A stretch of DNA of 64,000 nt. Origin: Enterobacteria phage Ac3. The stretch lies in sequence record OK040907, one strand, 5' to 3'. The notes beneath the pieces are model-generated. The model had not been told where the DNA came from, did no database searches, and saw only the letters and a program-made list of their open reading frames with translations. The position numbers were made by a program, and so were the translations under genes. Below are positions 3,994 through 61,657 of this stretch, piece by piece. Numbering within the stretch: position 1 is the first letter of the stretch; each line of letters starts with the position of its first letter.

Positions 3994-4275
3994 TTAAAAT
4001 GTAATTTCTAACCAATCACCATCACGCTGATCACTATTGACTTTAAAATTAAATCCTTCTTTTCTCAGCCAATCACCAATTTCTTCAGTAATCAATTTAT
4101 CACGAGCAGTACAATAATAACTAAAATATGTTTTACCTTGTTCAGCTGCTTTATTAGCAAGTTCTGAAAAATCTTTAATAAAACACTCTAGCTTAAACTG
4201 TTTACTTTTTAATGCTTTTTCACGTAATTGATTAGCAAAAGATTCATTTTCATAAAGATTACACAGTGCCGTTTT
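3994..4275 (-). pseudogene. ATG-less 93-codon AT-rich open frame (possible 5'-disrupted small gene or non-canonical start)
   Basis: open frame with T4-like codon usage (…ELANKAAEQGKTYFSYYCTARDKLITEEIGDWLRKEGFNFKVNSDQRDGDWLEITF) but no in-frame ATG/GTG; begins immediately after a TGA inside the 3' end of the adjacent GC-rich ORF. Confidence 0.3.
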
Positions 4276-4474
4276 TCACCTTTTTGTTGATGTGACGTTT
4301 GCGGTAAACCACTTTTTCGCGGGTTTCGAACTTGTTTTTAGCGGTCATGGCACGTGCCCACAGAACGGCAACTTCTTTGGCCTGCAGGTTCAGTTCACGA
4401 GCAATTTCGATGAAGCTTTTACCGGATTCGTGCAGGGTGAACACTACAACCTCGGTGCGCATAATCAATCTCAT
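4259..4474 (-). CDS. small GC-rich ORF, predicted helix-turn-helix protein with basic C-terminal tail
   Basis: 71-codon ORF (alternative start at second ATG, 4462); ESGKSFIEIARELNLQAKEVAVLW resembles a transposase/regulator-type HTH; composition clearly more G+C-rich than flanks. Confidence 0.5.
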   Translation of the reverse strand: MRLIMRTEVVVFTLHESGKSFIEIARELNLQAKEVAVLWARAMTAKNKFETREKVVYRKRHINKKVKNGTV

Positions 4475-5702: not shown

Positions 5703-6383
5703 TTATTTTAATGTTACGAAAGAAGAATTGCGTGTTTCACGAATTAAAACTGATCCGTCGCGATTAATGTAATAAATTAAGCTAAACAAAGTTTGGTGTG
5801 CTGACGCGTGTTCAAAACTAGTTGGATGAGATTTCCAATCAGGAGTTTCAGCGATCCATTGATAAATCCACCAAGGAACCGTACAGAATCCTGGATTTTT
5901 CCCCAATAATTGAAGATTCGGGCTAAAGTTTTCCGGAAGAGTAAATACAGACGGCTTTTCAGATTCAATAATCTTATCTACAGCTTGTTCAAACTTTTCT
6001 TCAACAAAAGGAGTGTCTTCAATCAAAACATCAGTATTTTCAGGAATTTTATCCGTTTCTACCACTTCAATTTTAATATCAGATTTAACTGGAGAATCAA
6101 TCAGAAGTGCTGCTTCTGGATTAACTTCTTCATCGTCATATTTTAATCCCTCTGCAGCATCAGCAGCATCAATTAAGTCTTTAATAGATAACCCATCAGT
6201 CTCTGGCATAGGTTCACTAGCGAGCTTCTGGAGGGCTTCTTCAATATCAACAACGATATTATCAAAAGATTTATTCTTTTTGACCTTTATACCAAATTGC
6301 TCAGCATATTCAGCTAATTTAGCTTTAGCTTCTTTATTATCATCAAGAGCCTTTAACTCTGCAATATAATCTTTATCTATCAT
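5703..6383 (-). CDS. inh: inhibitor of prohead protease Inh
   Basis: 226-aa acidic ORF in the T4 inh position between hoc and uvsW. Confidence 0.75.
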   Translation of the reverse strand: MIDKDYIAELKALDDNKEAKAKLAEYAEQFGIKVKKNKSFDNIVVDIEEALQKLASEPMPETDGLSIKDLIDAADAAEGLKYDDEEVNPEAALLIDSPVKSDIKIEVVETDKIPENTDVLIEDTPFVEEKFEQAVDKIIESEKPSVFTLPENFSPNLQLLGKNPGFCTVPWWIYQWIAETPDWKSHPTSFEHASAHQTLFSLIYYINRDGSVLIRETRNSSFVTLK

Positions 6384-6406
6384 AATATTTCCTCAGTATA
6401 AATATA

Positions 6407-6414
6407 GATATATT
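6407..6414 (+). promoter_or_regulatory. T4-type late promoter TATAAATA upstream of uvsW
   Basis: exact TATAAATA about 20 nt upstream of the uvsW start. Confidence 0.65.
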
Positions 6415-6433
6415 TATTACATGGTATTTAGAC

Positions 6434-7945
6434 ATGACTGACATTAAAGTACATTTTTATGATTTTAGTCACGTGAGAATTGATTGTGAAGAAAGTACAT
6501 TTCATGAACTCCGTGATTTCTTTAGCTTCGAAGCTGATGGGTATCGTTTTAATCCGAAATACAAATATGGCCACTGGGATGGACGAATCCGTCTTTTAGA
6601 TTATAATCGTCTTCTTCCATTCGGCTTAGTCGGGCAAATTAAAAAGTTCTGTGATAACTTTGGCTATAAAGCCTGGATTGACCCACAAATTAACGAAAAA
6701 GAAGAATTATCAAGAAAAGATTTTGATGAATGGCTTTCTAAATTAGAAATCTATTCAGGAAATAAAAGAATTGAACCACACTGGTATCAAAAAGATGCAG
6801 TGTTCGAAGGATTAGTTAATCGTCGTAGAATTCTTAATCTTCCAACATCCGCTGGTAAATCTTTAATTCAGGCTCTGCTCGCTCGGTATTATTTGGAAAA
6901 TTACGAAGGTAAAATTCTTATCATTGTTCCAACAACTGCTCTAACAACTCAGATGGCTGATGACTTCGTTGACTATCGTTTATTCAGTCATGCAATGATA
7001 AAGAAAATTGGTGGCGGAGCATCAAAAGATGATAAATATAAAAATGATGCACCAGTCGTTGTTGGTACATGGCAAACTGTAGTTAAACAACCAAAAGAAT
7101 GGTTCTCACAGTTTGGAATGATGATGAATGATGAATGTCATCTTGCTACAGGAAAAAGTATTTCATCTATCATATCAGGTTTAAATAACTGCATGTTCAA
7201 ATTTGGTCTATCTGGTTCATTACGTGATGGCAAAGCCAATATCATGCAGTATGTTGGAATGTTTGGTGAAATATTTAAGCCAGTAACGACTTCTAAGTTA
7301 ATGGAAGATGGACAAGTAACTGAGCTAAAAATTAATAGTATTTTTCTTCGCTATCCCGATGAGTTCACTACTAAATTAAAGGGAAAAACTTATCAAGAAG
7401 AAATAAAAATTATTACGGGGCTTAGTAAAAGAAATAAATGGATCGCTAAATTAGCTATTAAGCTTGCGCAAAAAGATGAAAACGCTTTTGTCATGTTTAA
7501 ACATGTATCACATGGTAAAGCTATTTTCGATTTAATTAAAAATGAATATGATAAAGTTTATTACGTATCAGGGGAAGTTGATACCGAAACCCGCAATATA
7601 ATGAAAACCTTAGCTGAAAATGGTAAAGGAATAATTATAGTAGCTAGTTATGGTGTATTTTCTACTGGTATTTCAGTTAAAAATCTGCACCACGTTGTTT
7701 TAGCACACGGTGTTAAATCAAAAATCATTGTATTACAAACAATCGGTCGTGTATTACGTAAGCATGGTTCTAAGACAATAGCAACAGTCTGGGACCTCAT
7801 AGATGATTGTGGTGTTAAGCCAAAATCTGCTAATACGAAAAAGAAATATGTTCATTTGAACTATCTTTTAAAACACGGCATTGATCGTATTCAGCGCTAC
7901 GCAGATGAAAAATTTAATTACGTAATGAAAACAGTTAATTTATAA
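6434..7945 (+). CDS. uvsW: UvsW DNA/RNA helicase (SF2)
   Basis: 503-aa ORF; Walker A-like LPTSAGKS and DExH-like NDECH motifs; T4 gene order. Confidence 0.92.
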   Translation: MTDIKVHFYDFSHVRIDCEESTFHELRDFFSFEADGYRFNPKYKYGHWDGRIRLLDYNRLLPFGLVGQIKKFCDNFGYKAWIDPQINEKEELSRKDFDEWLSKLEIYSGNKRIEPHWYQKDAVFEGLVNRRRILNLPTSAGKSLIQALLARYYLENYEGKILIIVPTTALTTQMADDFVDYRLFSHAMIKKIGGGASKDDKYKNDAPVVVGTWQTVVKQPKEWFSQFGMMMNDECHLATGKSISSIISGLNNCMFKFGLSGSLRDGKANIMQYVGMFGEIFKPVTTSKLMEDGQVTELKINSIFLRYPDEFTTKLKGKTYQEEIKIITGLSKRNKWIAKLAIKLAQKDENAFVMFKHVSHGKAIFDLIKNEYDKVYYVSGEVDTETRNIMKTLAENGKGIIIVASYGVFSTGISVKNLHHVVLAHGVKSKIIVLQTIGRVLRKHGSKTIATVWDLIDDCGVKPKSANTKKKYVHLNYLLKHGIDRIQRYADEKFNYVMKTVNL

Positions 7946-16889: not shown

Positions 16890-16920
16890 TTTGTGTTCCT
16901 CATGTTATGTCAGTAAGACT

Positions 16921-16950
16921 ACTATAACACAACATGAGGGACTTGTAAAC
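16921..16950 (-). promoter_or_regulatory. T4-type early promoter (GTTTAC, 18-nt spacer, TATAGT)
   Basis: minus strand GTTTACaagtccctcatgttgtgtTATAGT; part of an exact 54-bp repeat also found at 32174..32227. Confidence 0.7.
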
Positions 16951-29405: not shown

Positions 29406-30795
<1,390 letters not shown>

Positions 30796-30799
<4 letters not shown>

Positions 30800-31026
30800 T
30801 TATTTTTCTCAACCAATGATTGAATATAATCATGCAGGTCTTTAGATGCTTTACCCCACTTATTTTGATATTCATTTTTGAGATTAGCGCGTGATTGAGC
30901 TAATAAAACATCATTAGTTGGAGGTAAAGATTCTAATCGTTGAATCTGTCGTCCATAAATCATTGCAGCCATCTCGGATTCATAAATTAATCCTTTTAGA
31001 TGTTCAAATTGATACCATGAAATCAT
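30796..31026 (-). CDS. hypothetical protein
   Basis: 76-aa AT-rich ORF. Confidence 0.5.
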
Positions 31027-31322
31027 TTACATTTATCCTCTTTTAGCTCTTGACGATAATAACATATCATAGTTTTCTGGTCATGTACATATCGTTTTAC
31101 ATCATTAAGCCAAATACGAAATTCCTGAGAATCTTCAAATGGCATACCTACCCAAGCTTTACCATCAATAACTTTAACTTGCCAAGATAGTTTAGCTTCG
31201 TCATATGACTTTATTTGCACAGGCCAATTAGGATGAACTGTTTCTTTCTTTACTTCTAGAGGCTTTGTCGAACAACCAACTAGAAGACCAATAGATAATA
31301 TTACTGCAGATAATTTAATCAT
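31023..31322 (-). CDS. predicted lipoprotein
   Basis: 99-aa ORF; signal peptide with lipobox LLVGC (MIKLSAVILSIGLLVGCSTKP). Confidence 0.55.
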   Translation of the reverse strand: MIKLSAVILSIGLLVGCSTKPLEVKKETVHPNWPVQIKSYDEAKLSWQVKVIDGKAWVGMPFEDSQEFRIWLNDVKRYVHDQKTMICYYRQELKEDKCK

Positions 31323-31672
31323 TTAGAAAGGTCCTGGATGTCTTCTGCGAACTTGTTGAAGGAGTTGTTGATTTGTTTTTCAACCAATCCTGGCTTACGA
31401 GCCACCACATCCGCCTTCTTTGCATCTTTGCGCAGTTTTTCATTTTCATGCTCAATAGCAGCAATCGCCTCACGATTTTTATTATTCATCGCATCAATAT
31501 AATTATACTGAATTCGCAAATTATTTAATGCTAAGGCGTTTTCATTGGCCGTTTTTGTAATTTCAGTAACTGATGTTTCTAATCTTTCTACCTTATTTTT
31601 TAAAATAATAGATGTTCCGCCAAATGCTATTACAAGTAATAGCAATCCAGCTGTAAAATTACTTACATGCAT
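31319..31672 (-). CDS. predicted membrane-anchored coiled-coil protein
   Basis: 117-aa ORF; N-terminal hydrophobic segment GLLLLVIAFGGTSIIL. Confidence 0.5.
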   Translation of the reverse strand: MHVSNFTAGLLLLVIAFGGTSIILKNKVERLETSVTEITKTANENALALNNLRIQYNYIDAMNNKNREAIAAIEHENEKLRKDAKKADVVARKPGLVEKQINNSFNKFAEDIQDLSK

Positions 31673-32169
31673 AAAGTTTTAATAACCTCTATAATATCGT
31701 CTTGAGAAAGACCGTTAATTAAAATATGATGTTCAACCGGAGATTTAGAAATTTTAAAGCACGCCGCAACATCTTCTGCCATATCCGATGCGCTACGATT
31801 TGGATTACTAATTCCAAGACGATGCTTTCCCGTCAAAGGATTAACGATGATATAGCATTTGCAGCTATTGATGTGAACATTAGGTTGAGTCTGATTAATG
31901 AATACTTCACAATCGTATTTCGCAAACTGATTTTCTAAAAAGACTTTCATCTCCTCAACCGCATCAGGAAGCATATCACGGGCTTGCTCAAGACGACGAT
32001 TTCGATATTCTTTAATGGTCGTTTTCCGCTTGACTTGCTTAGCTAAATCTTTCTTAAGATCGGTGATATATCCAACTCGACGATTTCCTTTGAATACAGA
32101 AATCCCATCTGTAGTATCACCGTATGCTTCAACGACCATTTCAGTAGTAATAAGCTGCAAATCCATCAT
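31663..32169 (-). CDS. alc: Alc, inhibitor of host transcription
   Basis: 168-aa ORF (T4 Alc 167 aa) next to rnlA; early promoter upstream. Confidence 0.7.
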   Translation of the reverse strand: MMDLQLITTEMVVEAYGDTTDGISVFKGNRRVGYITDLKKDLAKQVKRKTTIKEYRNRRLEQARDMLPDAVEEMKVFLENQFAKYDCEVFINQTQPNVHINSCKCYIIVNPLTGKHRLGISNPNRSASDMAEDVAACFKISKSPVEHHILINGLSQDDIIEVIKTLCM

Positions 32170-32197
32170 AAAGTCCTCATGTTATGTCAGTAAGACT

Positions 32198-32227
32198 ACT
32201 ATAACACAACATGAGGGACTTGTAAAC
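32198..32227 (-). promoter_or_regulatory. T4-type early promoter (GTTTAC, 18-nt spacer, TATAGT)
   Basis: identical to the promoter at 16921..16950; within exact 54-bp repeat. Confidence 0.7.
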
Positions 32228-32230
32228 AGC

Positions 32231-33818
<1,588 letters not shown>

Positions 33819-33845
33819 AATAAAATGGGCCTTGCGGCCCACTCC

Positions 33846-35024
33846 TTAAAAGTATTTTTTAAAACTCATCATAACTTTATCATCAACATCATTATCAATC
33901 TGTGCAACAAGATAAGATGACAGTTCTACTTCTTGCGGCGCGGATTGAACATTATCAGAATTAAGGTATTCACGAATCCAAGGATATGGATGTTTAACCG
34001 GAGCATCGGTAATCGGGCATGGAAGACCACACTGTTTCATACGAGATACAGTTAAGTAATCAATAAAGCTCCACATGCTATTTGTATTTAATCCAGGAAC
34101 ATCGCCATCTTTAAATAAATGAACTGCCCAATCTTTTTCTTGGCGGTTAACTTCCATGAAAATATCAACTGCTTCTTGTTCACACTCTTTGGCAATTTTA
34201 ACCCATTCATCACCATCAGTGCCAAGTTGAAGTTGACGAATAATATATTGTGTACCTTTAAGATGAAGCTGCTCATCACGTGCAATGAACTTCATAATCT
34301 TGGCATTACCTTCCATGATTTCCATGTTTTTATGGAAGTTAAAGGTACACGCAAAGGATACATAAAAACGAATAGCTTCTAATGCATTAATAACGTGCAA
34401 ACAGAGGTAAAGAGAGCGCATTAGTTCACGTTTCCAATACATTTCATGCTCTATGGCATCTTTAATATCATCTTCGTCTGCGTTAATTTCTTTTTGGTAC
34501 TCAATATCAGCTTTAGCATTCTGCCAATATCTAGTTTTCTCAATAACATCATCATAATAACGACCAATAGATTCAGCACGTTTCATGATAGCTTTATCTA
34601 ATACAATCTCATCAAATACCTTTGACGGATCAGTATAAAGATTTCGCATAATATGAGTGTATGAACGACTGTGAATAGTTTCACTAAAAGTCCATGTAGC
34701 AACCCATGTATCAAGGCTTGGGTCTGAAATCAATGACATAAGTACAGCAGACGGTGCACGACCCTGAATGCTATCCAGAAGTGATTGATACTTCAGATTA
34801 TTAGTAAAAATATTCTGCTGATATTGAGGAAGCTTATTAAACTGTGCAGCATCCATCATTAAGTTTACTTCTTCAGGACGCCAGAAAAATGACAACTGCT
34901 TTTCGGTTAAATCTTCAAAAACTTTATGACGTTGAATATCATAACGCGCAATACCAAGACCTGAACCAAAAAACATAGGTTCTTTTAAAACATCAACTGG
35001 ATTTGTATTAAAAACTGTGCTCAT
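33846..35024 (-). CDS. nrdB: ribonucleotide reductase beta subunit (uninterrupted)
   Basis: 392-aa continuous ORF with ferritin-like diiron ligand spacing; no intron-sized interruption. Confidence 0.9.
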   Translation of the reverse strand: MSTVFNTNPVDVLKEPMFFGSGLGIARYDIQRHKVFEDLTEKQLSFFWRPEEVNLMMDAAQFNKLPQYQQNIFTNNLKYQSLLDSIQGRAPSAVLMSLISDPSLDTWVATWTFSETIHSRSYTHIMRNLYTDPSKVFDEIVLDKAIMKRAESIGRYYDDVIEKTRYWQNAKADIEYQKEINADEDDIKDAIEHEMYWKRELMRSLYLCLHVINALEAIRFYVSFACTFNFHKNMEIMEGNAKIMKFIARDEQLHLKGTQYIIRQLQLGTDGDEWVKIAKECEQEAVDIFMEVNRQEKDWAVHLFKDGDVPGLNTNSMWSFIDYLTVSRMKQCGLPCPITDAPVKHPYPWIREYLNSDNVQSAPQEVELSSYLVAQIDNDVDDKVMMSFKKYF

Positions 35025-35075
35025 AAATTTTCCGCTTAGTTAATAGTTGGTGACTCGTCCGTGAGTCAAATTATA

Positions 35076-37340
35076 TCATAATTTACAGGATGAACAATCT
35101 TCAGCTTTTGGAGTTTCTATTTCATAATCATCAGTACCAGAACCATCACGGGTATTATGATAATAGAAATTTTTTCCGCCAAAATACCAAAAATACAAAA
35201 GGTCATCAATCATTATTGACATTGGAACCTTTCCTTTTGGAAAAATCTGCGGGTCATAATATGTATTCGCTGAAGCTGATTGACATACCCATTTCAGCAT
35301 AATAGCTACCTGCGTAAGATAAGGTTTATTACCTTTCTTAGCTAATTTCCATGTATAATCATATAGGTCTATGTTATGTTCAATATTGGGCACGACTTGA
35401 TTAAAGGAACCCTCTTTTGATTCTTTAACAGAGACTGGTCCACGTGGAGGCTCGATACCGTTTGTACTGTTAGAAACTTGGGAAGATGACTCACATGGCA
35501 TAAGTGCTGATAGTGTGCTATTACGGATGCCAAAGAGCTTAAGGTCTTCCCGCAGCGACGACCAGTCACAAACGTATTTTGGAGCTGCGATTTGGTCAAT
35601 CTTTTTATTGTACCAGTCGATAGGTAATTCGCCTCGAGACCAACGAGTGTCTGAATAATATTCGCAAGGTCCTTTTTCTTTGGCGAGCTTAATGGATGCT
35701 TTAATGAGTCCATACTGTAATCTCTCAAATAGTTCATGTGTTAAATCGTTAGCATCTTCATAAGAAGCAAAGTTACTTGCCAACCAAGCTGCATAGTTAG
35801 TAACACCTACACCGAGGTTACGACGCTTTTTAGCTTTTTCTGCTTCAGGAACTGGATATCCTTGGTAATCCAAAAGATTATCAAGAGCACGAACCTGGAC
35901 TTCTGCCAATTCATTAATTTTATCTTGGTCTTGCCAGTCAAAATTATCCAGTACGAATGCAGAGAGAGTACACAATCCAATTTCAGCATCAGGACTATTC
36001 ACATCATTTGTTGGAATAGCAATTTCACAGCACAAGTTACTCTGACGAATAGGTGCCTTTTCACGAATAAACGGAGTATAGTTATTCGTATTATCAATGA
36101 ACTGTACATAAATCCTTGCTGTTCCTGAGCGTTCAGTCATGAGCAATTCAAATAGTTCACGAGCTTTAATACGCTTTTTACGAATATTAGGGTCTTTTTC
36201 TGCTGCTTCGTATAATTCACGGAAACGGTCTTGGTCTTTAAAATAAGAATAATAAAGCTCTCCGCCCATTTCATGGGGACTGAACAAAGTAATGTAATCG
36301 TTCTTTCCAAAACGTTCCATCATCAAATCATTCAGTTGAACACCATAATCCATATGACGAATGCGGTTTTCTTCTACGCCTTTGTTATTTTTCAAAACAA
36401 GAAGATTTTCAACTTCCAAATGCCAAATAGGATAATAAGCAGTAGCAGCGCCGCCACGAATTCCACCCTGTGAGCATGATTTAACAGCAGTCTGAAAATG
36501 TTTCCAAAAAGGAATAACACCAGTATGGCGTACTTCACCCATGCCAATCTTAGAACCTTCAGCACGAATCATACCAACGTTAATACCAATTCCAGCGCGT
36601 TTAGAGATATATTCAACAATTGAAGCGGAAGCCTTATTGATAGACTTTAATGAATCACCTGCCTCAATAACAACGCATGAACTAAACTGCCGAGTTGGAG
36701 TACGGCAACCAGCCATAATAGGAGTTGGTAATGAAATCTGTCGAGTAGATACCGCTTCATAAAAACGGATAACATGTTTTAATCTATCAGCAGGTTCATC
36801 TTGATGCAATGCCATTCCAATAGTCATAAATGCAAACTGTGGAGTTTCATAAATTTGACCAGTGGTTTTATCTTTAACTAGATATTTTTCTTTTAATTGC
36901 ATCGCCCCGGAATAAGTAAATTCCATATCCCGCTCGTGCTTAATTTTTGATTCTAAAAATGTAATTTCTTCTGCTGAATATTTTGACAATAATTCAGGGT
37001 CATATTTACCTTCATTTACACAGTAAGAAATATGGTCAATAAATGAACGTGGTTCATACTGCCCATAAACATGCTTACGAAGAGCAAACATTAAACAGCG
37101 TGCAGCTACATATTGATAATCAGGTTCTTCAACCGAAATAGAATTCGCAGCGGCCTTAATGACAATAGTCTGAATATCATCAGTTGTCATTCCATCACGG
37201 AGATAAGATTTAATATTTTCATATAATTCATAAGGATCTACTGATGTTCCTTCAGCTGCCCAAGATAAAACTTTAATAATTTTTTGTGGGTCAAAGCTCT
37301 GAGAAACACCACTACTTTTGATAACATTAATTAATTGCAT
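35076..37340 (-). CDS. nrdA: ribonucleotide reductase alpha subunit
   Basis: 754-aa ORF (T4 NrdA length); active-site region NLCCEI and C-terminal redox cysteines. Confidence 0.93.
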   Translation of the reverse strand: MQLINVIKSSGVSQSFDPQKIIKVLSWAAEGTSVDPYELYENIKSYLRDGMTTDDIQTIVIKAAANSISVEEPDYQYVAARCLMFALRKHVYGQYEPRSFIDHISYCVNEGKYDPELLSKYSAEEITFLESKIKHERDMEFTYSGAMQLKEKYLVKDKTTGQIYETPQFAFMTIGMALHQDEPADRLKHVIRFYEAVSTRQISLPTPIMAGCRTPTRQFSSCVVIEAGDSLKSINKASASIVEYISKRAGIGINVGMIRAEGSKIGMGEVRHTGVIPFWKHFQTAVKSCSQGGIRGGAATAYYPIWHLEVENLLVLKNNKGVEENRIRHMDYGVQLNDLMMERFGKNDYITLFSPHEMGGELYYSYFKDQDRFRELYEAAEKDPNIRKKRIKARELFELLMTERSGTARIYVQFIDNTNNYTPFIREKAPIRQSNLCCEIAIPTNDVNSPDAEIGLCTLSAFVLDNFDWQDQDKINELAEVQVRALDNLLDYQGYPVPEAEKAKKRRNLGVGVTNYAAWLASNFASYEDANDLTHELFERLQYGLIKASIKLAKEKGPCEYYSDTRWSRGELPIDWYNKKIDQIAAPKYVCDWSSLREDLKLFGIRNSTLSALMPCESSSQVSNSTNGIEPPRGPVSVKESKEGSFNQVVPNIEHNIDLYDYTWKLAKKGNKPYLTQVAIMLKWVCQSASANTYYDPQIFPKGKVPMSIMIDDLLYFWYFGGKNFYYHNTRDGSGTDDYEIETPKAEDCSSCKL

Positions 37341-37657
37341 AAGTCCTCAACTTGAAAATCGTCTTTAAACAATCGGTTAACTATATGAGCTATTATATCA
37401 CCATGACACGGCTTTGGTTTACATGTGCATCCTAGCCTCATTCCACGTAAAGGCTCTAAATGTGCTTTAGTTATTTCTCCGGATTTAATTCGACGTATAA
37501 AATCTTTTTTGAATAATTCAATGGCAGCCTCCCGGCTGCCAGCATCTTTACCGACGTAATTTCCCCAAAATGTACCACGGTGAATATTAACATCAAAGTC
37601 GGATTTATATTTATTCACTACTCGGCATATACGGCCTGCGCGGTTGTAAGTGTTCAT
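37331..37657 (-). CDS. hypothetical protein (nrdA.x-like)
   Basis: 108-aa ORF between td and nrdA; conserved [11 protein letters not shown] stretch. Confidence 0.55.
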
Positions 37658-37886
37658 ATTGTTCTTCCGTTAAAACAGTAATATCGTAGTAACAGTCAGA
37701 AGAAGTTTTAACTGTGGAAATTTTATTATCAAAATACTCACGAGTCATTTTATGAGTATAATATTTTTTGCCATAAATGATAATAGGCTGATTTGGTCCT
37801 GGAACTTCTAACTCACTTGGATTAGGAAGTGTAAAAAGAACTACACCAGAAGTATCTTTAAATCGTAAAATCATATATCCTCGCAA
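37611..37886 (-). CDS. hypothetical protein (nrdA.x-like)
   Basis: 91-aa ORF between td and nrdA. Confidence 0.5.
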
Positions 37887-37894
37887 TAATAAAA

Positions 37895-38755
37895 TTACAC
37901 CGCCATCTTTCCTTTAATAGGAGGATGTGATTCATAGTTGTTAAGAACAAAATTATGAGGCTTTGCAAATTGACTCAACCAAAATACCTGCGATTCTGTG
38001 TCCCATTCATCAAATTCATCTGGAAATTTTAATTGTAATTCGCATAAATCCATAGGTTCACGACATAAAATTTCTTTACATTGTTCTACGTGATTCATAT
38101 AGATATGAGTATTACCACCAGAAAATATCAAATCTCCCGGAATAAGATTACACATCTTAGCTACAATATGAACTAACGTAGCATATGATGCAATATTAAA
38201 TGGAAGACCGAGGAAAACATCTACCGAACGTTGATACCACTGAAGGTCAAGGTATCCATTACGCACATTAAACTGATAGAACATATGACAAGGCGGTAAT
38301 GCCATATATTTAAGTTCAGCTGGATTCCACGCAGAAACAATTTGACGCCTATCATTTGGCAGTTTTTTAATACGATCAATAACTTCTATAATTTGATCTA
38401 CACCGCCAAAATCACGCCACTGTTTTCCATAAATTGGACCAAGTTCACCGCTATGGTATCCTAAATCTTTTGCTTGATTTTCGTAATTTTCATCCCAGAC
38501 TGTTTTGCCTTGAATTAATGAATCATGTTGAATTAATCGCAAATCATTGACATTTGTGCTTCCTGATAAAAACCATATTAGCTCAGCAATGCATGCATTC
38601 CAGGCGAGCTTTTTAGTTGTTACTGCAGGAAAACCTTTGGTTAAATCCCAACGCAATTTAGTACCGAACAAAGCAATTGTTCCTGTGCCCGTTCGGTCAT
38701 CGGTTTCATAGCCATTTTCAAAAATGTCTTTAATTAAATCTTGGTATTGTTTCAT
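37895..38755 (-). CDS. td: thymidylate synthase (uninterrupted)
   Basis: 286-aa continuous ORF (T4 Td length); active-site region LPPCH; no intron-sized gap. Confidence 0.93.
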
Positions 38756-38800
38756 TTAGTACCTTATATAAATTATAATACATTTTATGAAGCTAAATAA

Positions 38801-39148
38801 TCAATACGGTTTAGCATCAAATTTTCTCCCAATTTCAGGCGTGAAATATAATTCTTTACCGCGTTTGGAAAAGCGACCAATAATATGATAATTATTCTCA
38901 TCAAACGTGATATTACCAATATCCATAGCTTTCAACCAAATATCGATATTTCTATCCAGCTTTATGTCAAAATTCCAATACGGAGAACTATTACCGAAAA
39001 TACTACAAGCGGATTCAGTGAAACAACTGCTATAAATCTTGTCTTTAGGAACTACTAATTGATAGACACCTTTAATAAACTGAGGACCCTGCCACTTTGG
39101 CTGTTTCTCATCTTTTTCTAATAGAATAGGGTAATAATTAAAATTCAT
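38801..39148 (-). CDS. hypothetical protein inserted between frd and td
   Basis: 115-aa AT-rich ORF occupying the frd-td junction. Confidence 0.55.
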   Translation of the reverse strand: MNFNYYPILLEKDEKQPKWQGPQFIKGVYQLVVPKDKIYSSCFTESACSIFGNSSPYWNFDIKLDRNIDIWLKAMDIGNITFDENNYHIIGRFSKRGKELYFTPEIGRKFDAKPY

Positions 39149-39167
39149 ATTTCCGCCGCGCGTTATT

Positions 39168-40126
<959 letters not shown>

Positions 40127-40179
40127 TTTTTAAAGCATTGCATAATAGAATTCATCATTCATAAACTCAAATACAAAAA

Positions 40180-40539
40180 TTATATTATCTCCCATCGAAA
40201 AGGGTCAGGAGCATATCCGATAGAGTTAATCATTTTAACTAAAGTTACCATTCCTTTGTTAACTGCTTGTGCGATTTCATCAAAAACTTCATCGCTATCA
40301 TCATAAAGGTCATTAAAAAGTTCTAACACGTTCTTCTGAACTTTTAATTTATGACCAACAATCTCGCCTACAGTAAATTCGTTTCCGCCGATTCCAGTGT
40401 AAAACGTAATTACACCAGTTAACAGACTTTCGCGAGAATCTAGGTCATGTGATAAATTAATATAAGCCATCCCGGGTGCAGTTTTAAGTTGGCAACGAAT
40501 TCTTACTTGGGTAATTCCGGTTACATGAATGTCGGACAT
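40180..40539 (-). CDS. hypothetical protein (frd.x-like)
   Basis: ORF track 40180..40680; start moved to MSDIHVTG (119 aa) preceded by AAGGAAAA; upstream part of the track ORF overlaps the neighbouring GC-rich gene out of frame. Confidence 0.55.
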   Translation of the reverse strand: MSDIHVTGITQVRIRCQLKTAPGMAYINLSHDLDSRESLLTGVITFYTGIGGNEFTVGEIVGHKLKVQKNVLELFNDLYDDSDEVFDEIAQAVNKGMVTLVKMINSIGYAPDPFRWEII

Positions 40540-40549
40540 ATTATTTTCC

Positions 40550-40789
40550 TTAAGCTTTCTTGGCAACTTTCCAGTCAGCTTTGAACTGATCGACGTCGCT
40601 GTGATGGATCCAGAAGCCGGAGCTGGAACCGTCTTCATAGAGTGGGCAACCGTCACATTCATCTTCCCAACCCATATCACGCAGGAGATGTTCTGCCTTT
40701 TCGATCAGCTCGGAATCTTTACCAATGATGTTGAAGTACCATTTGCCGCGTACTTCAGAGTCTTTAATGGACTGACGCTGCAGACGCAT
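40550..40789 (-). CDS. small GC-rich early protein with CxxC-like pair
   Basis: ORF track 40550..40879 (TTG start); real start taken as ATG at 40789 preceded by GAGGAG and an early promoter; 79 aa, E. coli-like codons. Confidence 0.55.
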   Translation of the reverse strand: MRLQRQSIKDSEVRGKWYFNIIGKDSELIEKAEHLLRDMGWEDECDGCPLYEDGSSSGFWIHHSDVDQFKADWKVAKKA

Positions 40790-40816
40790 TTTATTCTCCT
40801 CAAGTTGATAGGGTAA

Positions 40817-40846
40817 TAGTATCACACTACTACCCTGTTGTAAACA
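40817..40846 (-). promoter_or_regulatory. T4-type early promoter (GTTTAC, 18-nt spacer, TACTAT)
   Basis: minus strand GTTTACaacagggtagtagtgtgaTACTAT then ACCCTATCAACT initial region. Confidence 0.65.
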
Positions 40847-40847
40847 A

Positions 40848-41150
40848 TTATTTTTGAATTTTATCGAGCCACTTACCAAGCTTAATCATTTCTTTAGTAG
40901 CCTTTTCCATACTTCTGAACTTAACCAATAGAGGATAGGTATCGACACCCATAACTAAACTGGTTACAAGACTGTGTTCACCCACAAGCCATAACGAATA
41001 CGTTTGAATATCGAGTCCGTAATTTCTGTCTTTATGGACCCGTACACCCATCACTTCAAATTTCTCACTAGCTTTTTCTACCGCATCCAGGAAATCATCT
41101 TTAGTCATATTAGGCCTTAAAAGTTTTTCGCAAAAGTTCAATGATTTCAT
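40848..41150 (-). CDS. hypothetical protein
   Basis: 100-aa ORF (start may be the internal ATG at 41108). Confidence 0.5.
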   Translation of the reverse strand: MKSLNFCEKLLRPNMTKDDFLDAVEKASEKFEVMGVRVHKDRNYGLDIQTYSLWLVGEHSLVTSLVMGVDTYPLLVKFRSMEKATKEMIKLGKWLDKIQK

Positions 41151-41496
41151 CTACATTGTTTTCGTCAACAATGCAGTGAATTTTTGTTACGCCAGAAACT
41201 ATACCTTCATTAGCGGATTGAGGCTTTTCTAAAGTTACCTCAGTAAAGTATTTGAATTCTTCAGAGTAAATCTCAAAATACGTCTCAAGTGGGCCACCCG
41301 CCATGTATTCAGTACCATCTTCCATAGTTACACGTACCACACATTCACCAGCACAATCATCACTTTCCATTTCATCTACAACAAAACTAGGTCCGTGCTT
41401 CTCTATTAAATTTAGCATCATTACATTGCAACGGCACTCGTTAGCAAAGTCATTTTTAAATAAAGGGTTAATGATATAAGTTTTTCCAACTTCCAC
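41110..41496 (-). CDS. hypothetical acidic protein
   Basis: 128-aa ORF. Confidence 0.5.
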   Translation of the reverse strand: MEVGKTYIINPLFKNDFANECRCNVMMLNLIEKHGPSFVVDEMESDDCAGECVVRVTMEDGTEYMAGGPLETYFEIYSEEFKYFTEVTLEKPQSANEGIVSGVTKIHCIVDENNVDEIIELLRKTFKA

Positions 41497-41919: not shown

Positions 41920-42828
41920 TTACAGGTCGTTCAGGAGGTCATCCAGGTCGGTATCGTCGGCGCTGGAAGAGGAGCCGCTAGAGGAAGACATGAAGTCATC
42001 TTCGGTTTTAGTGTTAAAATCGTCAACGTTAAAGGCGTCCAGGTCATCCGCTACCTTATCGGCTTTCTTAGCCGCAGTAGCCGCAGCACCGCCCATCACA
42101 GCAGTGCCCATAACCTGACCGAACTTGGTGTTGAGTTCCTCAAAAGATTTAAATTTATCTTTGGAGGTCATCTCAGACAGATCTACCATCTGCTCAAACA
42201 GTTCTTTTTGGAAAGATTCGTCATCGATGTTCGGGATAGCAGACTGGTTCAGAAATTTGCTCTCGTCGTAATTGGAGAAACCAGAAACCTGTTTAACCTT
42301 CAGAACGAAGTTGGCACCCTCCCACGGGCAGGTGACGTCGACCGGGGTTTCACCCATCTCCACGTCCACCGCAATCATAGCGTTAATTTTATCCCAGATT
42401 TTCTTACCAAAGCGGTATTTGAAAACCTTACCCTCGTTTTCTGGCGCAGCTGGATCCTTTACAACCAGGATGTTAGCCCAGTAAGAGGTTTTACGTTTCA
42501 CCAGGCCGTATTCTTTATTGTCGGTATTATACAGATCGTTTTTGGAAATGTACTGACACACCGGGCAAGAGTCGTAGTCGCCGTGGGTGGAAGAACAGTT
42601 TTCGATGTACCATTTGCCGTTTTTCTTAAAACCGTGGTTCACCAGGATAGCGAACGGAGCCTGTTCGTCATTTTTGCTCGGCAGGAAGCGGATCACCGCC
42701 TGACCGTTGCCCGCGTTGTCCAGTTTCAGTTTCCATTCGCCTTTGTCCTCAGAGCTGAAGCCACCTTTGTTGCCCGCCAGCTTGGCCATCTGCGCAGCCA
42801 GTTCTGCCGTGCTCTTACGCTTGAACAT
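41920..42828 (-). CDS. 32: single-stranded DNA-binding protein gp32
   Basis: 302-aa ORF; N-terminus [17 protein letters not shown]; zinc-ligand region [12 protein letters not shown]; acidic Ser/Asp-rich C-terminus. Confidence 0.95.
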
Positions 42829-42900
42829 TTTTATTTCCTTTTTAATTTAATTAACAGTTGGTGCTATGACGATGTATGACCTCATAGCTGGTCAGTGAGA
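42829..42900 (-). promoter_or_regulatory. gene 32 5' leader / translational operator
   Basis: minus strand reads …GCTGACCAGCTATGAGGTCATACATCGTCATAGCAC…TTAATTAAATTAAAAAGGAAATAAAAATG, matching my recollection of the T4 gene 32 autoregulatory leader (pseudoknot plus AU-rich tract). Confidence 0.55.
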
Positions 42901-50914: not shown

Positions 50915-53900
50915 ATGGCTACTTTAAAACAAATACAATTTAAAAGAAGCAAAACCGCAGGAGCACGTCCTGCCGCTTCAGTATTAGCCGAAGGTGAATT
51001 GGCTATAAACTTAAAAGACCGTGTACTTTTTACTAAAGATGACCAAGGAAATATTATTGATCTGGGTTTTGCTAAGGGCGGTAGTATTGACGGGAATGTT
51101 ATTCATATAGGAAACTATAACCAAACTGGTGATTATACTTTAAATGGCGCATTAACTCAGACAGGTAATTTTAATTTAACTGGTATTGCTCGAGTAACTC
51201 GCGATATTATTGCCGCTGGGCAGATTATGACTGAAGGCGGAGAACTTATTACAAAAAGTTCAGGTACAGCGCATGTTCGTTTTTTCGATGGCAATAGTCG
51301 CGAACGCGGAATCATTTATGCCCCGGCTAATGATGGTTTAACTACACAAGTACTTAATATCAGGGTTCAAGACTATGCCGCTGGTAGCGAAACGACTTAT
51401 CGATTTTCAGGCAGTGGCCTATTTACTTCACCTGAAGTATCAGCATGGAAATCTATTTCGTCTCCACAAATTCTGACCGATAAAGTTATTACAAATGGGA
51501 AGAAGACAGGCGATTATGATATCTATTCATTATCAAATAACACTCCAATGGCAGAAGGCGAAACGGCTATTAACCACCTCCGTGTTATGCGAAATGCTGT
51601 AGGAGCAGGTATTTTCCACGAAGTTAATGTTAATGACGGAATAACCTGGTATTCCGGACATGGCTTAGACACTTATCTTTGGTCGTTTAACTGGGCCGGT
51701 GGATTGAAAGCTGGTCATTCTATTGCTGTGGCCTTCCTCACGGTTCTAAAATTATTCAGAAATGGGCACGGCTTCTATTGCTTTAGGAGAGTAGATGATA
51801 CCGGATTTAAATGGCATCAGGATGGATATTATTTCAGCGTTAATAATGGAACAAAAACATTTTTATTTAGTCCTAGTGAAACAACTAGCCTAAGAAAATT
51901 TGTAGCTGGATATTCTACTAACGGAACCGATTTAACGACTCCTCCAACTGAAAACTATGCTCTTGCTACTGTCGTGACATATCACGATAATAACGCGTTT
52001 GGAGATGGTCAGACTCTTTTAGGATATTATCAAGGCGGTAATTATCATCACTATTTCCGCGGTAAAGGTACTACAAACATTAATACTCACGGCGGTTTGT
52101 TAGTTATTACTCCCGGTAATGTAGATGTGGTCGGCGGCATGGTTACCATTGATGGTAAAAATTATGCTTCTAGTGTGCTTTTTAAAGGAAATACTACAGG
52201 ATATAGTTCAGTTGATAATATAGAGCTCAAAGTTTGGGGTGACACTTTTAATACAGTAGGTGGTACTCGTAAAAACGTAATGGAAACATCTGATGCTACT
52301 GGCTGGATGCATTATATTCAACGAACTACAGCAGGTAAAGTTGAGTCCTATTTAAATGGTACCATGAATGTAAATGAAAGCATCAACGTCAGTAAAGAAG
52401 TTAACGCCTCTGGCACTATTGCTAGTAATGCTGTCAATGCGCTTCGCATTTGGAATGCAGATTATGGAGCTATTTTTAGACGTTCAGAAGGAAGTCTTCA
52501 TATTATTCCAACTGCTTATGGTGAAGGCAAAAATGGTGATATCGGTCCACTTCGCCCGTTTAGTATGGCTTTAGATACCGGTAAAGTTACTATTCCAGAT
52601 TTACAATCAAGTTACAATACGTTCGCTGCGAACGGCTATATTAAATTTGTTGGTCATGGAGCGGGTGCCGGCGGTTATGACATTCAATATGCTCAAGCGG
52701 CTCCTATTTTCCAGGAAATTGATGGATGCTGTAAGCAAATATTTATCCCTATTGTTAAACAGAAGTTTTTAAATGGTAAAGCCGTTTGGTCTTTAGGTAC
52801 TGAAATTAATTCTGGTACATTTGTTTTACATCATCTGAAAGAAGATGGACACAAGGTCATACATCAAGATTTAATGCTGACGGTACAGTTAATTTCCCTG
52901 ATAACGTTCAAGTCGGTGGTGGTGAAGCTACTATTGCTCGTAATGGTAATATTTTCTCGGATATTTGGAAACTGTTTACTTCTGCTGGAGACACTACAAA
53001 TATTCGGTGATGCAATAGCTACTCGTGTTGCTAAAGAAGGTGATACGATGACCGGTAGGTTGACTTTATCAGCTGGAAATGATGCACTTGTTTTAACTGC
53101 AGGCGTGGGTGCTTCATCACACATCCGTAGTGATGTAGGTGGTATAGGTAACTGGTATATAGGCAAAGGCGGCGGCGACAATGGTCTAGGTTTTTACAGT
53201 TACATTACACAAGGCGGTGTATACATAACAAATAACGGCGAAATAGCGCTTTCTCCTCAAGGTCAAGGAACATTTAATTTTAATAGGGATCGCCTTTATA
53301 TAAATGCTAGTCAATGGGTTGCACATAAATCTGGCGCTTGGGGTGACCAATGGGGCTTAGAAGCTCCTGTATTTGTGGATTTTGGTAGTGTCGGTAATGA
53401 TAGTTATTATCCTATTATTAAAGGAAAATCTGTTATTACGAATGAAGGATACATATCTGGCGTTGATTTTGGTATGCGTCGCATTACTAATACATGGGCA
53501 CAAGGTATTATTCGTGTAGGTAACCAGGAAAACGGTTCTGACCCACAAGCTATCTATGAATTCCACCACAATGGAGTTATGTATGTTCCTAACATGGTTA
53601 AAACCGGAGCAAGATTATCGGCTGGCGGTGGTGACCCGGTGTGGACTGGACCATGTCTTGTTATTGGTGATAATGTATCCGGATTAGTTCATGGTGGTGA
53701 TGGGCGAATTAACATGGTTGCAAATGGAGCGCATATTGCTTCGTGGTCTTCATCTTATCATTCTCATCCTGGCCTTTGGGATTCAAACGGTGCTTTGTGG
53801 ACGGAAGTTGGCAAAGCAGTTATTTCTCATGGTCATTTAGTTCAGGCGAATGACAACTATTCAACATATGTCCGCGATGTTTATGTCCGCTCTGATATTC

Positions 53901-54226
53901 GTGTTAAAAAGAACCTCGTTAAATTTGAAAATGCTTCTGAGAAGCTTTCTAAAATTAACGGTTACACTTATATGCAGAAACGTGGAACAGATGAAGAAGG
54001 TAATCAGAAATGGGAACCTAACGCAGGTTTGATAGCTCAAGAAGTTCAAGATATTTTACCAGAATTCGTTGAAGGTGACCCGGATGGTGAAGCTTTACTT
54101 CGTTTGAACTATAACGGTGTAATTGGTTTAAATACAGCTGCAATCAATGAGCATACTGCAGAAATTGCAGAACTTAAGTCAGAGATTGAAGAGCTTAAAA
54201 AATTAGTTAAATCATTGTTAAAATAA
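50915..54226 (+). CDS. 37: long tail fibre distal subunit gp37 (T2-type, C-terminal intramolecular-chaperone-like domain)
   Basis: 1103-aa ORF; DTMTGRL repeat; C-terminal SDIRVKKNL…[15 protein letters not shown]…coiled coil resembles autoproteolytic chaperone domains; internal segment 52810..53010 looks frame-shifted (see findings). Confidence 0.88.
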
Positions 54227-54231
54227 TAAGA

Positions 54232-54245
54232 GGGGCTTCGGCCCC
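54232..54245 (+). other. stem-loop GGGGC-TTCG-GCCCC between genes 37 and 38
   Basis: perfect 5-bp stem with TTCG loop; no strong T-run, so probably an RNA structure rather than a terminator. Confidence 0.4.
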
Positions 54246-54257
54246 TTGGAGGTTTAT

Positions 54258-55031
54258 ATGGCAGTTGAAGGACCGTGGGTAGGATGGTCTGCGAGGGTAC
54301 AGACTGGAGATCCTTGGATGGGTGGTGCCGCGCAGAGATTGAGAATGGGAATTCCGTTTTGGATGAGTAATATGATAGGTCGATCTGTTGAAATAATTCA
54401 CACGCTTGGAGCAGACCATAACTTCAATGGTCAATGGTTCCGAGATAGATGTTTTGAGGCAGGTAGTACACCTATAGTGTTTAATATCACTGGAGATTTA
54501 GTATCATATTCTAAAGATGTTCCTTTATTCTTCATGTACGGAGATACACCGAATGAATATGTTCAGTTGAATATACACGGCGTAGCGATGTATGGCCGTG
54601 GCGGTAATGGCGGTAGCAATAGTCCTGGTTCAGCTGGAGGTCATTGTATTCAAAACGATATTGGTGGGAGACTAAGAATTAATAATGGCGGAGCTATTGC
54701 AGGCGGTGGCGGCGGTGGCGGTGGCGGTAACAGGGGTCGACTAGTATTTGGTGGTGGCGGTGGTCGCCCATTCGGTAGTGGCGGGTCTTCCCTCTCTCAC
54801 ATGAGTGCTGGTGCAACCGCCGGCACCATTTACGCTCCGGGTGCAGGATCTGTCGGTGAGGGGTCTCTTAGTGCATATACAGGCGGGTCTGGTGGTGAAG
54901 TTGGCTCCGCAGGAGGTAGAAATACTCACGGTACCGGTACAGAATATGACGGCGGAGCTGCTGGTTATGCTGTTATAGGGTCGTCTCCAACGTGGATAAA
55001 TGTTGGAGCAATATATGGTCCAAGAGTATAA
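54258..55031 (+). CDS. 38: receptor-recognising adhesin gp38 (T2-type, glycine-rich motifs)
   Basis: ORF track starts at 54246; ATG at 54258 follows GGAGG; conserved N-terminal half then poly-Gly blocks ([25 protein letters not shown]) typical of T2/K3-type gp38 adhesins. Confidence 0.85.
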
Positions 55032-61599: not shown

Positions 61600-61627
61600 T
61601 TTCTGTTCCTCCGTAGTTGATAGGGTA

Positions 61628-61657
61628 ATAGTACCACGGAAGAACAGTCTTGTAAAC
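61628..61657 (-). promoter_or_regulatory. T4-type early promoter (GTTTAC, 18-nt spacer, TACTAT)
   Basis: minus strand GTTTACaagactgttcttccgtggTACTATTaccctatcaact. Confidence 0.6.

Follow-up and report, generated by a model that had tools for sequence, protein, structure and literature searches.

The segment at 40550-40846 of the 64,000-nt stretch of phage DNA analysed here (the window) carries, on its minus strand, a short open reading frame (ORF) preceded by a promoter and a ribosome-binding site (RBS). The gene itself is already known as frd.1 of the T4 family, and the promoter is of a known type. The features of the locus are as follows.

40816-40845, minus strand: early (sigma-70) promoter of the T4 type, from the sequence and a promoter scan
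40845-40840, minus strand: -35 hexamer GTTTAC, from the sequence
40824-40823, minus strand: TG within the 18-nt spacer, which ends in TGA, from the sequence
40821-40816, minus strand: -10 hexamer TACTAT, from the sequence
40796-40801, minus strand: Shine-Dalgarno sequence GAGGAG, 6 nt 5′ of the ATG, the same in RB51
40789-40787, minus strand: ATG of frd.1, from the sequence
40550-40789, minus strand: frd.1 coding sequence (CDS), 79 aa plus TAA, DUF5417 family, from Pfam, PHROG, tblastn and the RB51 and wV7 annotations
40552-40550, minus strand: stop codon TAA of frd.1, from the sequence

The GTTTAC-18-TACTAT promoter and the GAGGAG sequence are both present on the minus strand where the original prediction had placed them, and translation of 40550-40789 gives exactly the 79 residues quoted there. 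The promoter, which a sigma-70 scan also reads as TTTACA-17-TACTAT with an extended -10 element, fits the T4 early class (sigma-70, pre-AsiA) in its -35 GTTTAC, its spacer within 17-19 nt, its -10 TAnnAT, its location on the early strand and its position just 5′ of a gene; it is conserved upstream of T4 frd.1 and identical in RB51. Sites of the form GTTTAC-N17-19-TAYWAT occur nine times in the window, all of them on the minus strand, that of the early genes; shuffled sequences would give 0.25. The early-promoter reading is borne out both by this over-represented, strand-specific class of sites and by supplements 4 and 6 of PMC9697503, which place T4 frd.1 mRNA in the early class and report detection of the Frd.1 protein. 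The predicted alternative start, a TTG-initiated version of 109 aa, had been suspected to be wrong. Because all homologues begin with M(K/R)LQR, the correct start is the ATG, and the 109-aa version is an ORF-calling artefact; the Pfam model begins to match at the first residue of the 79-aa product, and the gene is annotated with the same ATG in T4, wV7 and RB51.

The frd.1 promoter together with the start of its leader (GTTTAC-N18-TACTATTACCCTATCAAC) was found again at 61616-61657 on the minus strand, in the ndd.4-ndd.5 region, and frd.1 appears, with motB.2 and sp, as a near-match off-target of CRISPRi-ART guides against the trna.4 and 30.8 start regions. The second promoter copy and the off-target lists point to a shared promoter-leader module. 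Elsewhere in the window, an exact 54-nt direct repeat lies on the minus strand at 16897-16950 and 32174-32227, its copies 5′ of alt.-3 and alc; the copy at 32174-32227 is an early-promoter cassette with GTTTAC, a TATAGT -10 element, a leader hairpin, GAGGA and ATG.

The 79-aa product matched the Pfam family DUF5417 (PF17438) with E=1.3e-34 and 118.7 bits (cut-off, 23.9), residues 1-78 aligning with model positions 1-90/91, and PHROG 1254 with E=1.9e-38. A tblastn search with the protein matched 1,416 phage records. It is identical to the proteins of RB51 (YP_002854191.1 / ACP31154.1) and wV7 (AEM00897.1) and shares 89.9% and 88.6% of its residues with those of T4 and T2, respectively; in all four phages its place is between frd and gene 32, as in the window, where it is read from the early-transcribed strand. 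Invariance was judged on an alignment of 23 sequences spanning 52-89% identity, and all the invariant DUF5417 residues are present in the window protein (M1, L3, R5, G15, K16, F19, W41, C45, D46, C48, Y51, G54, G58, F59, F69 and K70), with P49, W60 and I61 nearly invariant. The CDGC pair to which attention had been drawn falls within this set, as C45, D46 and C48 are the same in all 23 homologues.

Six ORFs lie between frd and gene 32 in the window and in RB51 and three in T4 (frd.1, frd.2 and frd.3), which agrees with the earlier statement that this interval holds more ORFs than in T4. The three that T4 lacks are the following.

39746-40087, minus strand: homologue of RB51ncORF236c, PHROG 8592, not in T4
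40180-40539, minus strand: homologue of RB51ncORF237c, DUF7247, PHROG 3566, downstream of frd.1, not in T4
40848-41108, minus strand: homologue of RB51ncORF239c, PHROG 4423, upstream of frd.1, not in T4

The stop codon of ncORF239c lies 2 nt before the frd.1 -35 hexamer, and the RBS of ncORF237c overlaps the frd.1 stop codon. It is ncORF236c, ncORF237c and ncORF239c that are the proper candidates for the accessory early genes that had been postulated for the interval.

The ORF is rich in G+C, as predicted (48.3%, the window averaging 36.3%; z=2.6, within the top 1.6% of 240-nt windows), but this richness does not mark foreign origin, the natural frd.1 having 38.8% G+C. Comparison with RB51 accounts for the excess: 54 synonymous substitutions, all inside the CDS, make up the whole of it. 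The window corresponds to the last 64,000 nt of RB51 (NC_012635.1 104395-168394) except for an Ac3-type gp37/38 segment, two single-nucleotide polymorphisms, one 1-nt indel and six CDS-bounded blocks. Phage wV7 was also considered as the reference and was rejected for its many divergent patches; RB51 is the true backbone. Genes 37/38 (50956-54566) carry many amino acid changes relative to RB51 and are 99.9% identical to the phage Ac3 partial record AF060870.1; the edges of this patch do not follow gene boundaries, and it looks like natural mosaicism. Given the match to Ac3, the backbone is RB51-like with Ac3-type host-range genes, and since an RB51 backbone with Ac3 tail fibres corresponds to no exact database record, an unsampled natural parent exists or once existed.

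The six blocks are of a different kind. Each falls within one gene, and each alters the DNA without altering the protein.

4259-4462, minus strand: 24.3 (DUF2774), rewritten, 53 nt differences from RB51, 0 aa
30497-30799, minus strand: RB32ORF217c homologue, rewritten, 80 nt differences from RB51, 0 aa
40551-40786, minus strand: rewritten block of frd.1, 54 nt differences from RB51 in 44 of 80 codons, 0 aa
41543-41773, minus strand: frd.3, rewritten, 51 nt differences from RB51, 0 aa
41920-42828, minus strand: gene 32 (single-stranded DNA-binding protein), rewritten, 190 nt differences from RB51 in 169 of 303 codons, 0 aa
61843-62106, minus strand: RB51ncORF272c, rewritten, 64 nt differences from RB51, 0 aa

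Altogether, 492 nt differences (438 of them in the five genes other than frd.1) affect 427 of the 717 codons and leave every amino acid unchanged. The frd.1 CDS is 77.5% identical to that of RB51 at the DNA level (186/240 nt) and 100% at the protein level, with swaps that include AGA to CGT, TTA to CTG, exchanges between serine AGC and TCN, and a TGA stop replaced by TAA. By comparison, the natural frd.1 genes of T4 and RB51 differ at 30 nt and already by seven amino acid replacements. Half of the serine codons in the six genes (28/56) cross between the AGY and TCN boxes, and in 21 codons all three positions are changed. The edges of the blocks coincide with the CDS boundaries, the first and last differences falling at codon 2 and at the stop codon, and around frd.1 the window and RB51 show zero differences over 30792-40550 and 40787-41303.

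The replacements follow a consistent codon preference. Among the 705 non-start, non-stop codons of the six genes, 17 rare or disfavoured codons are never used (TTA, TTG, CTT, CTA, ATA, AGA, AGG, CGA, CGG, GGA, GGG, TCA, TCG, AGT, ACA, CCT and CCC). The favoured codons are CTG, CGT, GGT, ACC, AAC, CAG, ATC, TTC and TAC; leucine is encoded exclusively by CTG/CTC, arginine by CGT/CGC, glycine by GGT/GGC and serine by TCT/TCC/AGC, and ACC, AAC, CAG and ATC are the commonest codons for threonine, asparagine, glutamine and isoleucine. The G+C content at third positions (GC3) rises from 0.29 in RB51 to 0.54 in the window for frd.1 and from 0.23-0.29 to 0.54-0.62 over the six genes, and the correlation with the codon usage of the phage falls from r=0.94 for the RB51 originals to r=0.32. 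The rewritten proportions appear to match the codon table of highly expressed E. coli genes; with the genome-wide E. coli table the correlation is only r=0.78. We are highly confident that the flagged ORF is frd.1, an early gene conserved in the Tevenvirinae and served here by a promoter and RBS of its own, and that its G+C content comes from codon-by-codon synonymous replacement.

The rewriting also had effects outside the reading frames concerned. In gene 24.3 it changed the ATG of the overlapping gene 24.2 (4272-4270, minus strand) to ACG, together with the first five codons of 24.2, so that 24.2 as annotated in RB51 is without a start codon in the window. In frd.1 it altered the RBS of the downstream ncORF237c from TGAGGAAA to TAAGGAAA, that is, from TGAGGA in RB51 to TAAGGA. 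The natural frd.1 start region is unstructured (-3.2 kcal/mol, z=+1.6, less folded than 195 of 200 shuffled sequences), whereas the rewritten one has a hairpin of -12.7 kcal/mol that begins at the AUG. PstI, BamHI and HindIII sites were newly created in the 240 nt of frd.1. Across all six genes the codon-aligned antisense frame is without stops because TTA, CTA and TCA codons are unused, and these open antisense frames give rise to spurious plus-strand ORFs at 40529-40816 (95 aa) and 42208-42879 (223 aa), antisense to frd.1 and gene 32, whose frames are broken in RB51. The 1-nt overlap between the RB32ORF217c stop codon and the pseT ATG was kept. The loss of the 24.2 start, the altered RBS, the start hairpin and the stop-free antisense frames are effects that selection would not produce.

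Rewritten frd.1 strings had no match in IMG/VR, JGI metagenomes or GTDB genomes, whereas a search with the natural string did give a match. In the 50,697 phage records of INPHARED, the best nucleotide identity was 82.4% for 40550-40846 (ORF and promoter) and 80.2% for the rewritten gene 32. Judged from the pattern of changes rather than from a record, the G+C-rich versions of the six genes are almost certainly artificial. The rewriting was most likely done in silico; a phage that was actually built is less likely. On the preferred reading, each codon change in the six CDSs would have introduced a synonym from the set favoured by highly expressed E. coli genes, with the proteins and the intergenic signals kept.

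The best-surviving alternative is that the window is real DNA of a laboratory-engineered phage, an RB51/Ac3-like chassis with six codon-optimised gene replacements. Such a phage could be viable, its promoters, RBSs and proteins being intact and the RB32ORF217c/pseT overlap having survived, and phage researchers do recode genes synonymously, for instance to obtain complementing copies that guide RNAs no longer recognise. Against this, the choice of targets has no evident purpose (five small non-essential ORFs and gene 32, scattered across 58 kb of a hydroxymethylcytosine phage that is hard to edit), overlapping genes and translation-start structure were ignored, three common cloning sites were introduced into a 240-nt gene, and the phage collection holds no matching record. 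We regard an engineered phage as unlikely, though it is the only alternative to in silico rewriting that carries appreciable weight.

A natural origin is far less probable. The six genes might have come by recombination with an unsampled lineage that had diverged synonymously under strong purifying selection, or might have been shaped by selection for host-like codons or for escape from immunity guided by nucleic acids. T-even genomes are indeed mosaic, the window itself contains the natural-looking Ac3-type gp37/38 patch, and evasion of a sequence-guided defence would in principle select for synonymous changes. Yet 492 nt differences in 717 codons brought no amino acid change, where the natural T4 and RB51 frd.1 genes accumulated seven replacements in 30 nt; 28 serine codons switched boxes; the block edges fall exactly on CDS boundaries between flanks identical to RB51; the rare codons of E. 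coli are all absent; the 24.2 start codon is lost; and the collections yielded at most 82.4% identity among phage records and no exact match in IMG/VR, JGI metagenomes or GTDB. These observations make a natural origin very improbable. The more specific scenario, in which a T4-like lineage rewrote its genes naturally, through escape from guided immunity or tRNA matching, and then passed them gene by gene by recombination into an RB51-identical genome, is hardly credible.

Equally hard to sustain is the reading suggested originally, that the ORF came in by horizontal transfer as a G+C-rich accessory gene of immediate-early type, inserted in the frd-32 interval of this phage lineage and missing from T4. 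It would account for an ORF that is G+C-rich relative to the rest of the window, in an interval with three more ORFs than in T4. But T4, T2, RB51 and wV7 all encode Frd.1 at this locus, homologues of it occur in over 1,400 phage records, RB51 encodes the identical protein in DNA of 38.8% G+C between identical flanks, and the extra ORFs are the neighbours of the flagged ORF and not the ORF itself. The original prediction had held that an identical ORF of the same composition at this locus in T4 and its close relatives would mark a core gene; the ORF and its locus are shared in this way, its composition is not. Finally, the notion that the 95-aa plus-strand ORF at 40529-40816 is the real gene and the minus-strand ORF incidental, which has an ATG-initiated frame in its favour, has next to no probability, as the antisense frame is broken in RB51 (longest open stretch, 24 codons), the same open-antisense artefact recurs in all six rewritten genes, and it is the minus-strand product that has a strong Pfam match and was detected as a protein in T4.

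The composition anomaly at frd.1 is thus a signature of codon rewriting, as set out above, and not of gene acquisition. The six G+C-rich genes and their long antisense ORFs should be treated as non-natural sequence, and signals of composition, codon usage, antisense ORFs or RNA structure at the six loci are not to be read as evolution or regulation. As biology, frd.1 is an ordinary gene, a known and conserved early gene of the T4 family; what is unusual is the nucleotide state of the six genes.

Because the regulatory parts are untouched and identical to those of RB51, the natural expression logic applies to frd.1 of the window. Host sigma-70 RNA polymerase would transcribe the gene right after infection, starting about 7 nt downstream of TACTAT, and from the position of the -10 hexamer we infer a transcription start near 40808-40810. 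The leader would then be roughly 20 nt long and contain GAGGAG, a strong site that would drive translation from the ATG at 40789 and yield a 79-aa, 9.3-kDa, mildly acidic protein.

The calculated pI of Frd.1 (79 aa, 9.3 kDa) is 5.3. An AlphaFold2 model based on the 23-sequence alignment (pLDDT 87.7) is a beta-beta-alpha-beta-beta-alpha sandwich. The protein contains the motif CDxCP.Y..G..GF, in which all residues are invariant among the 23 homologues apart from the nearly invariant P49. Of its Cys and His positions, only the two cysteines of the CxxC are invariant, further ones varying between subfamilies, and the predicted fold is not thioredoxin-like. Sequence and structure comparisons of Frd.1 gave no similarity to known anti-restriction or anti-defence inhibitors. 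We found no papers on DUF5417, and a search of main texts for ‘frd.1’ returned nothing relevant. Supplement file 15 of the CRISPRi-ART study (PMC11879866) lists T4 frd.1 as ‘Not Fit’, that is, without a fitness defect on knock-down, and Frd.1 is dispensable for growth on laboratory E. coli.

Outside the T4 family, a DUF5417 homologue is the first gene in an operon of the Webervirus siphovirus Sushi, and 1,033 plasmid records, of which 995 are conjugative, contain DUF5417 domains. Most of the plasmid domains are N-terminal and followed by a 150-450-aa C-terminal extension, and the sequences inspected show repeated ‘HAEAL’ motifs; no second Pfam domain was found in these larger proteins. One further match, a 1,530-aa repeat protein, looks like a compositional false positive and was discarded. 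In the IncN plasmid pTRE-131 (KX863569.1), the DUF5417 gene (6001-6678 of the locus excerpt) lies between ardB and ccgAI/stbABC, near the transfer genes; the ardB-ccgAI-stbABC segment of IncN is described as the leading region in the literature (Delver & Belogurov 1997, cited in PMC6289460). The context of the DUF5417 gene of an IncHI2 plasmid (6001-6945 of the locus excerpt) was uninformative.

Frd.1/DUF5417 is common to the early regions of two phage families and to about a thousand conjugative plasmids, and is a reasonable candidate for some task that arises as soon as DNA has reached a new cell. The related conjugative-plasmid domains suggest that Frd.1 may have its role just after DNA entry. 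Tentatively, Frd.1 could be an ‘establishment’ factor that serves host takeover or anti-defence in the first minutes after DNA entry. It would probably bind a host protein or some component of a defence system, and its CxxC might serve a metal or redox function; we put this forward as one possible reading and not as the probable one.

Of the known counterparts of frd.1, the genes of RB51 and wV7 are the closest. They share its protein, promoter, leader and flanking genes, and also lie between ncORF237c and ncORF239c; the RB51 gene differs in 54 synonymous nucleotides within the CDS only, in its stop codon (TGA, where the window has TAA) and in its G+C content (38.8%, where the window has 48.3%). 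T4 Frd.1 (NP_049851 / AAD42578 / UniProt P39506) is alike in 89.9% of its amino acids, in its GTTTAC-18-TACTAT promoter and in its locus, which lies between frd and frd.2. It differs in having 80 aa, another C-terminus and natural A+T-rich codons, and T4 lacks the three neighbouring ORFs and has a hydrophobic mini-ORF of 22 codons separating frd.1 from its promoter. This mini-ORF (AF158101.6, 1006-1140 of the locus excerpt, minus strand; MFAPYIMAAVMLVCLYLLIKAC) is unannotated, has its own RBS and ends just 5′ of the frd.1 RBS; neither the window nor RB51 contains it, and in both the promoter lies directly 5′ of frd.1.

At the nucleotide level, the six genes resemble codon-optimised synthetic genes, with an exactly preserved protein, about 55-65% of codons changed, only preferred codons used, a GC3 of about 0.6, TGA replaced by TAA in three of four stops and a stop-free antisense frame. 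Unlike such genes, they stand at their natural places in the phage and not in an expression vector, and common cloning sites were not avoided in them.

At the protein level, the ‘Frd.1-like’ proteins of Webervirus (Drexlerviridae), such as gp53 of Klebsiella phage Sushi, belong to the same Pfam family and have the same invariant residues, and the gp53 gene opens its operon after a divergent intergenic region. They differ by a 12-15-residue insertion after helix 1, by extra cysteines and by an identity of about 45-52%, and their genes are without frd or td neighbours. The establishment and anti-restriction proteins Ocr, ArdA and ArdB have no sequence or fold similarity to Frd.1 but are alike by context, being small, acidic and expressed immediately on DNA entry. 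DUF5417 is like these establishment proteins in its placement, in phage early regions and beside ardB in the IncN leading region.
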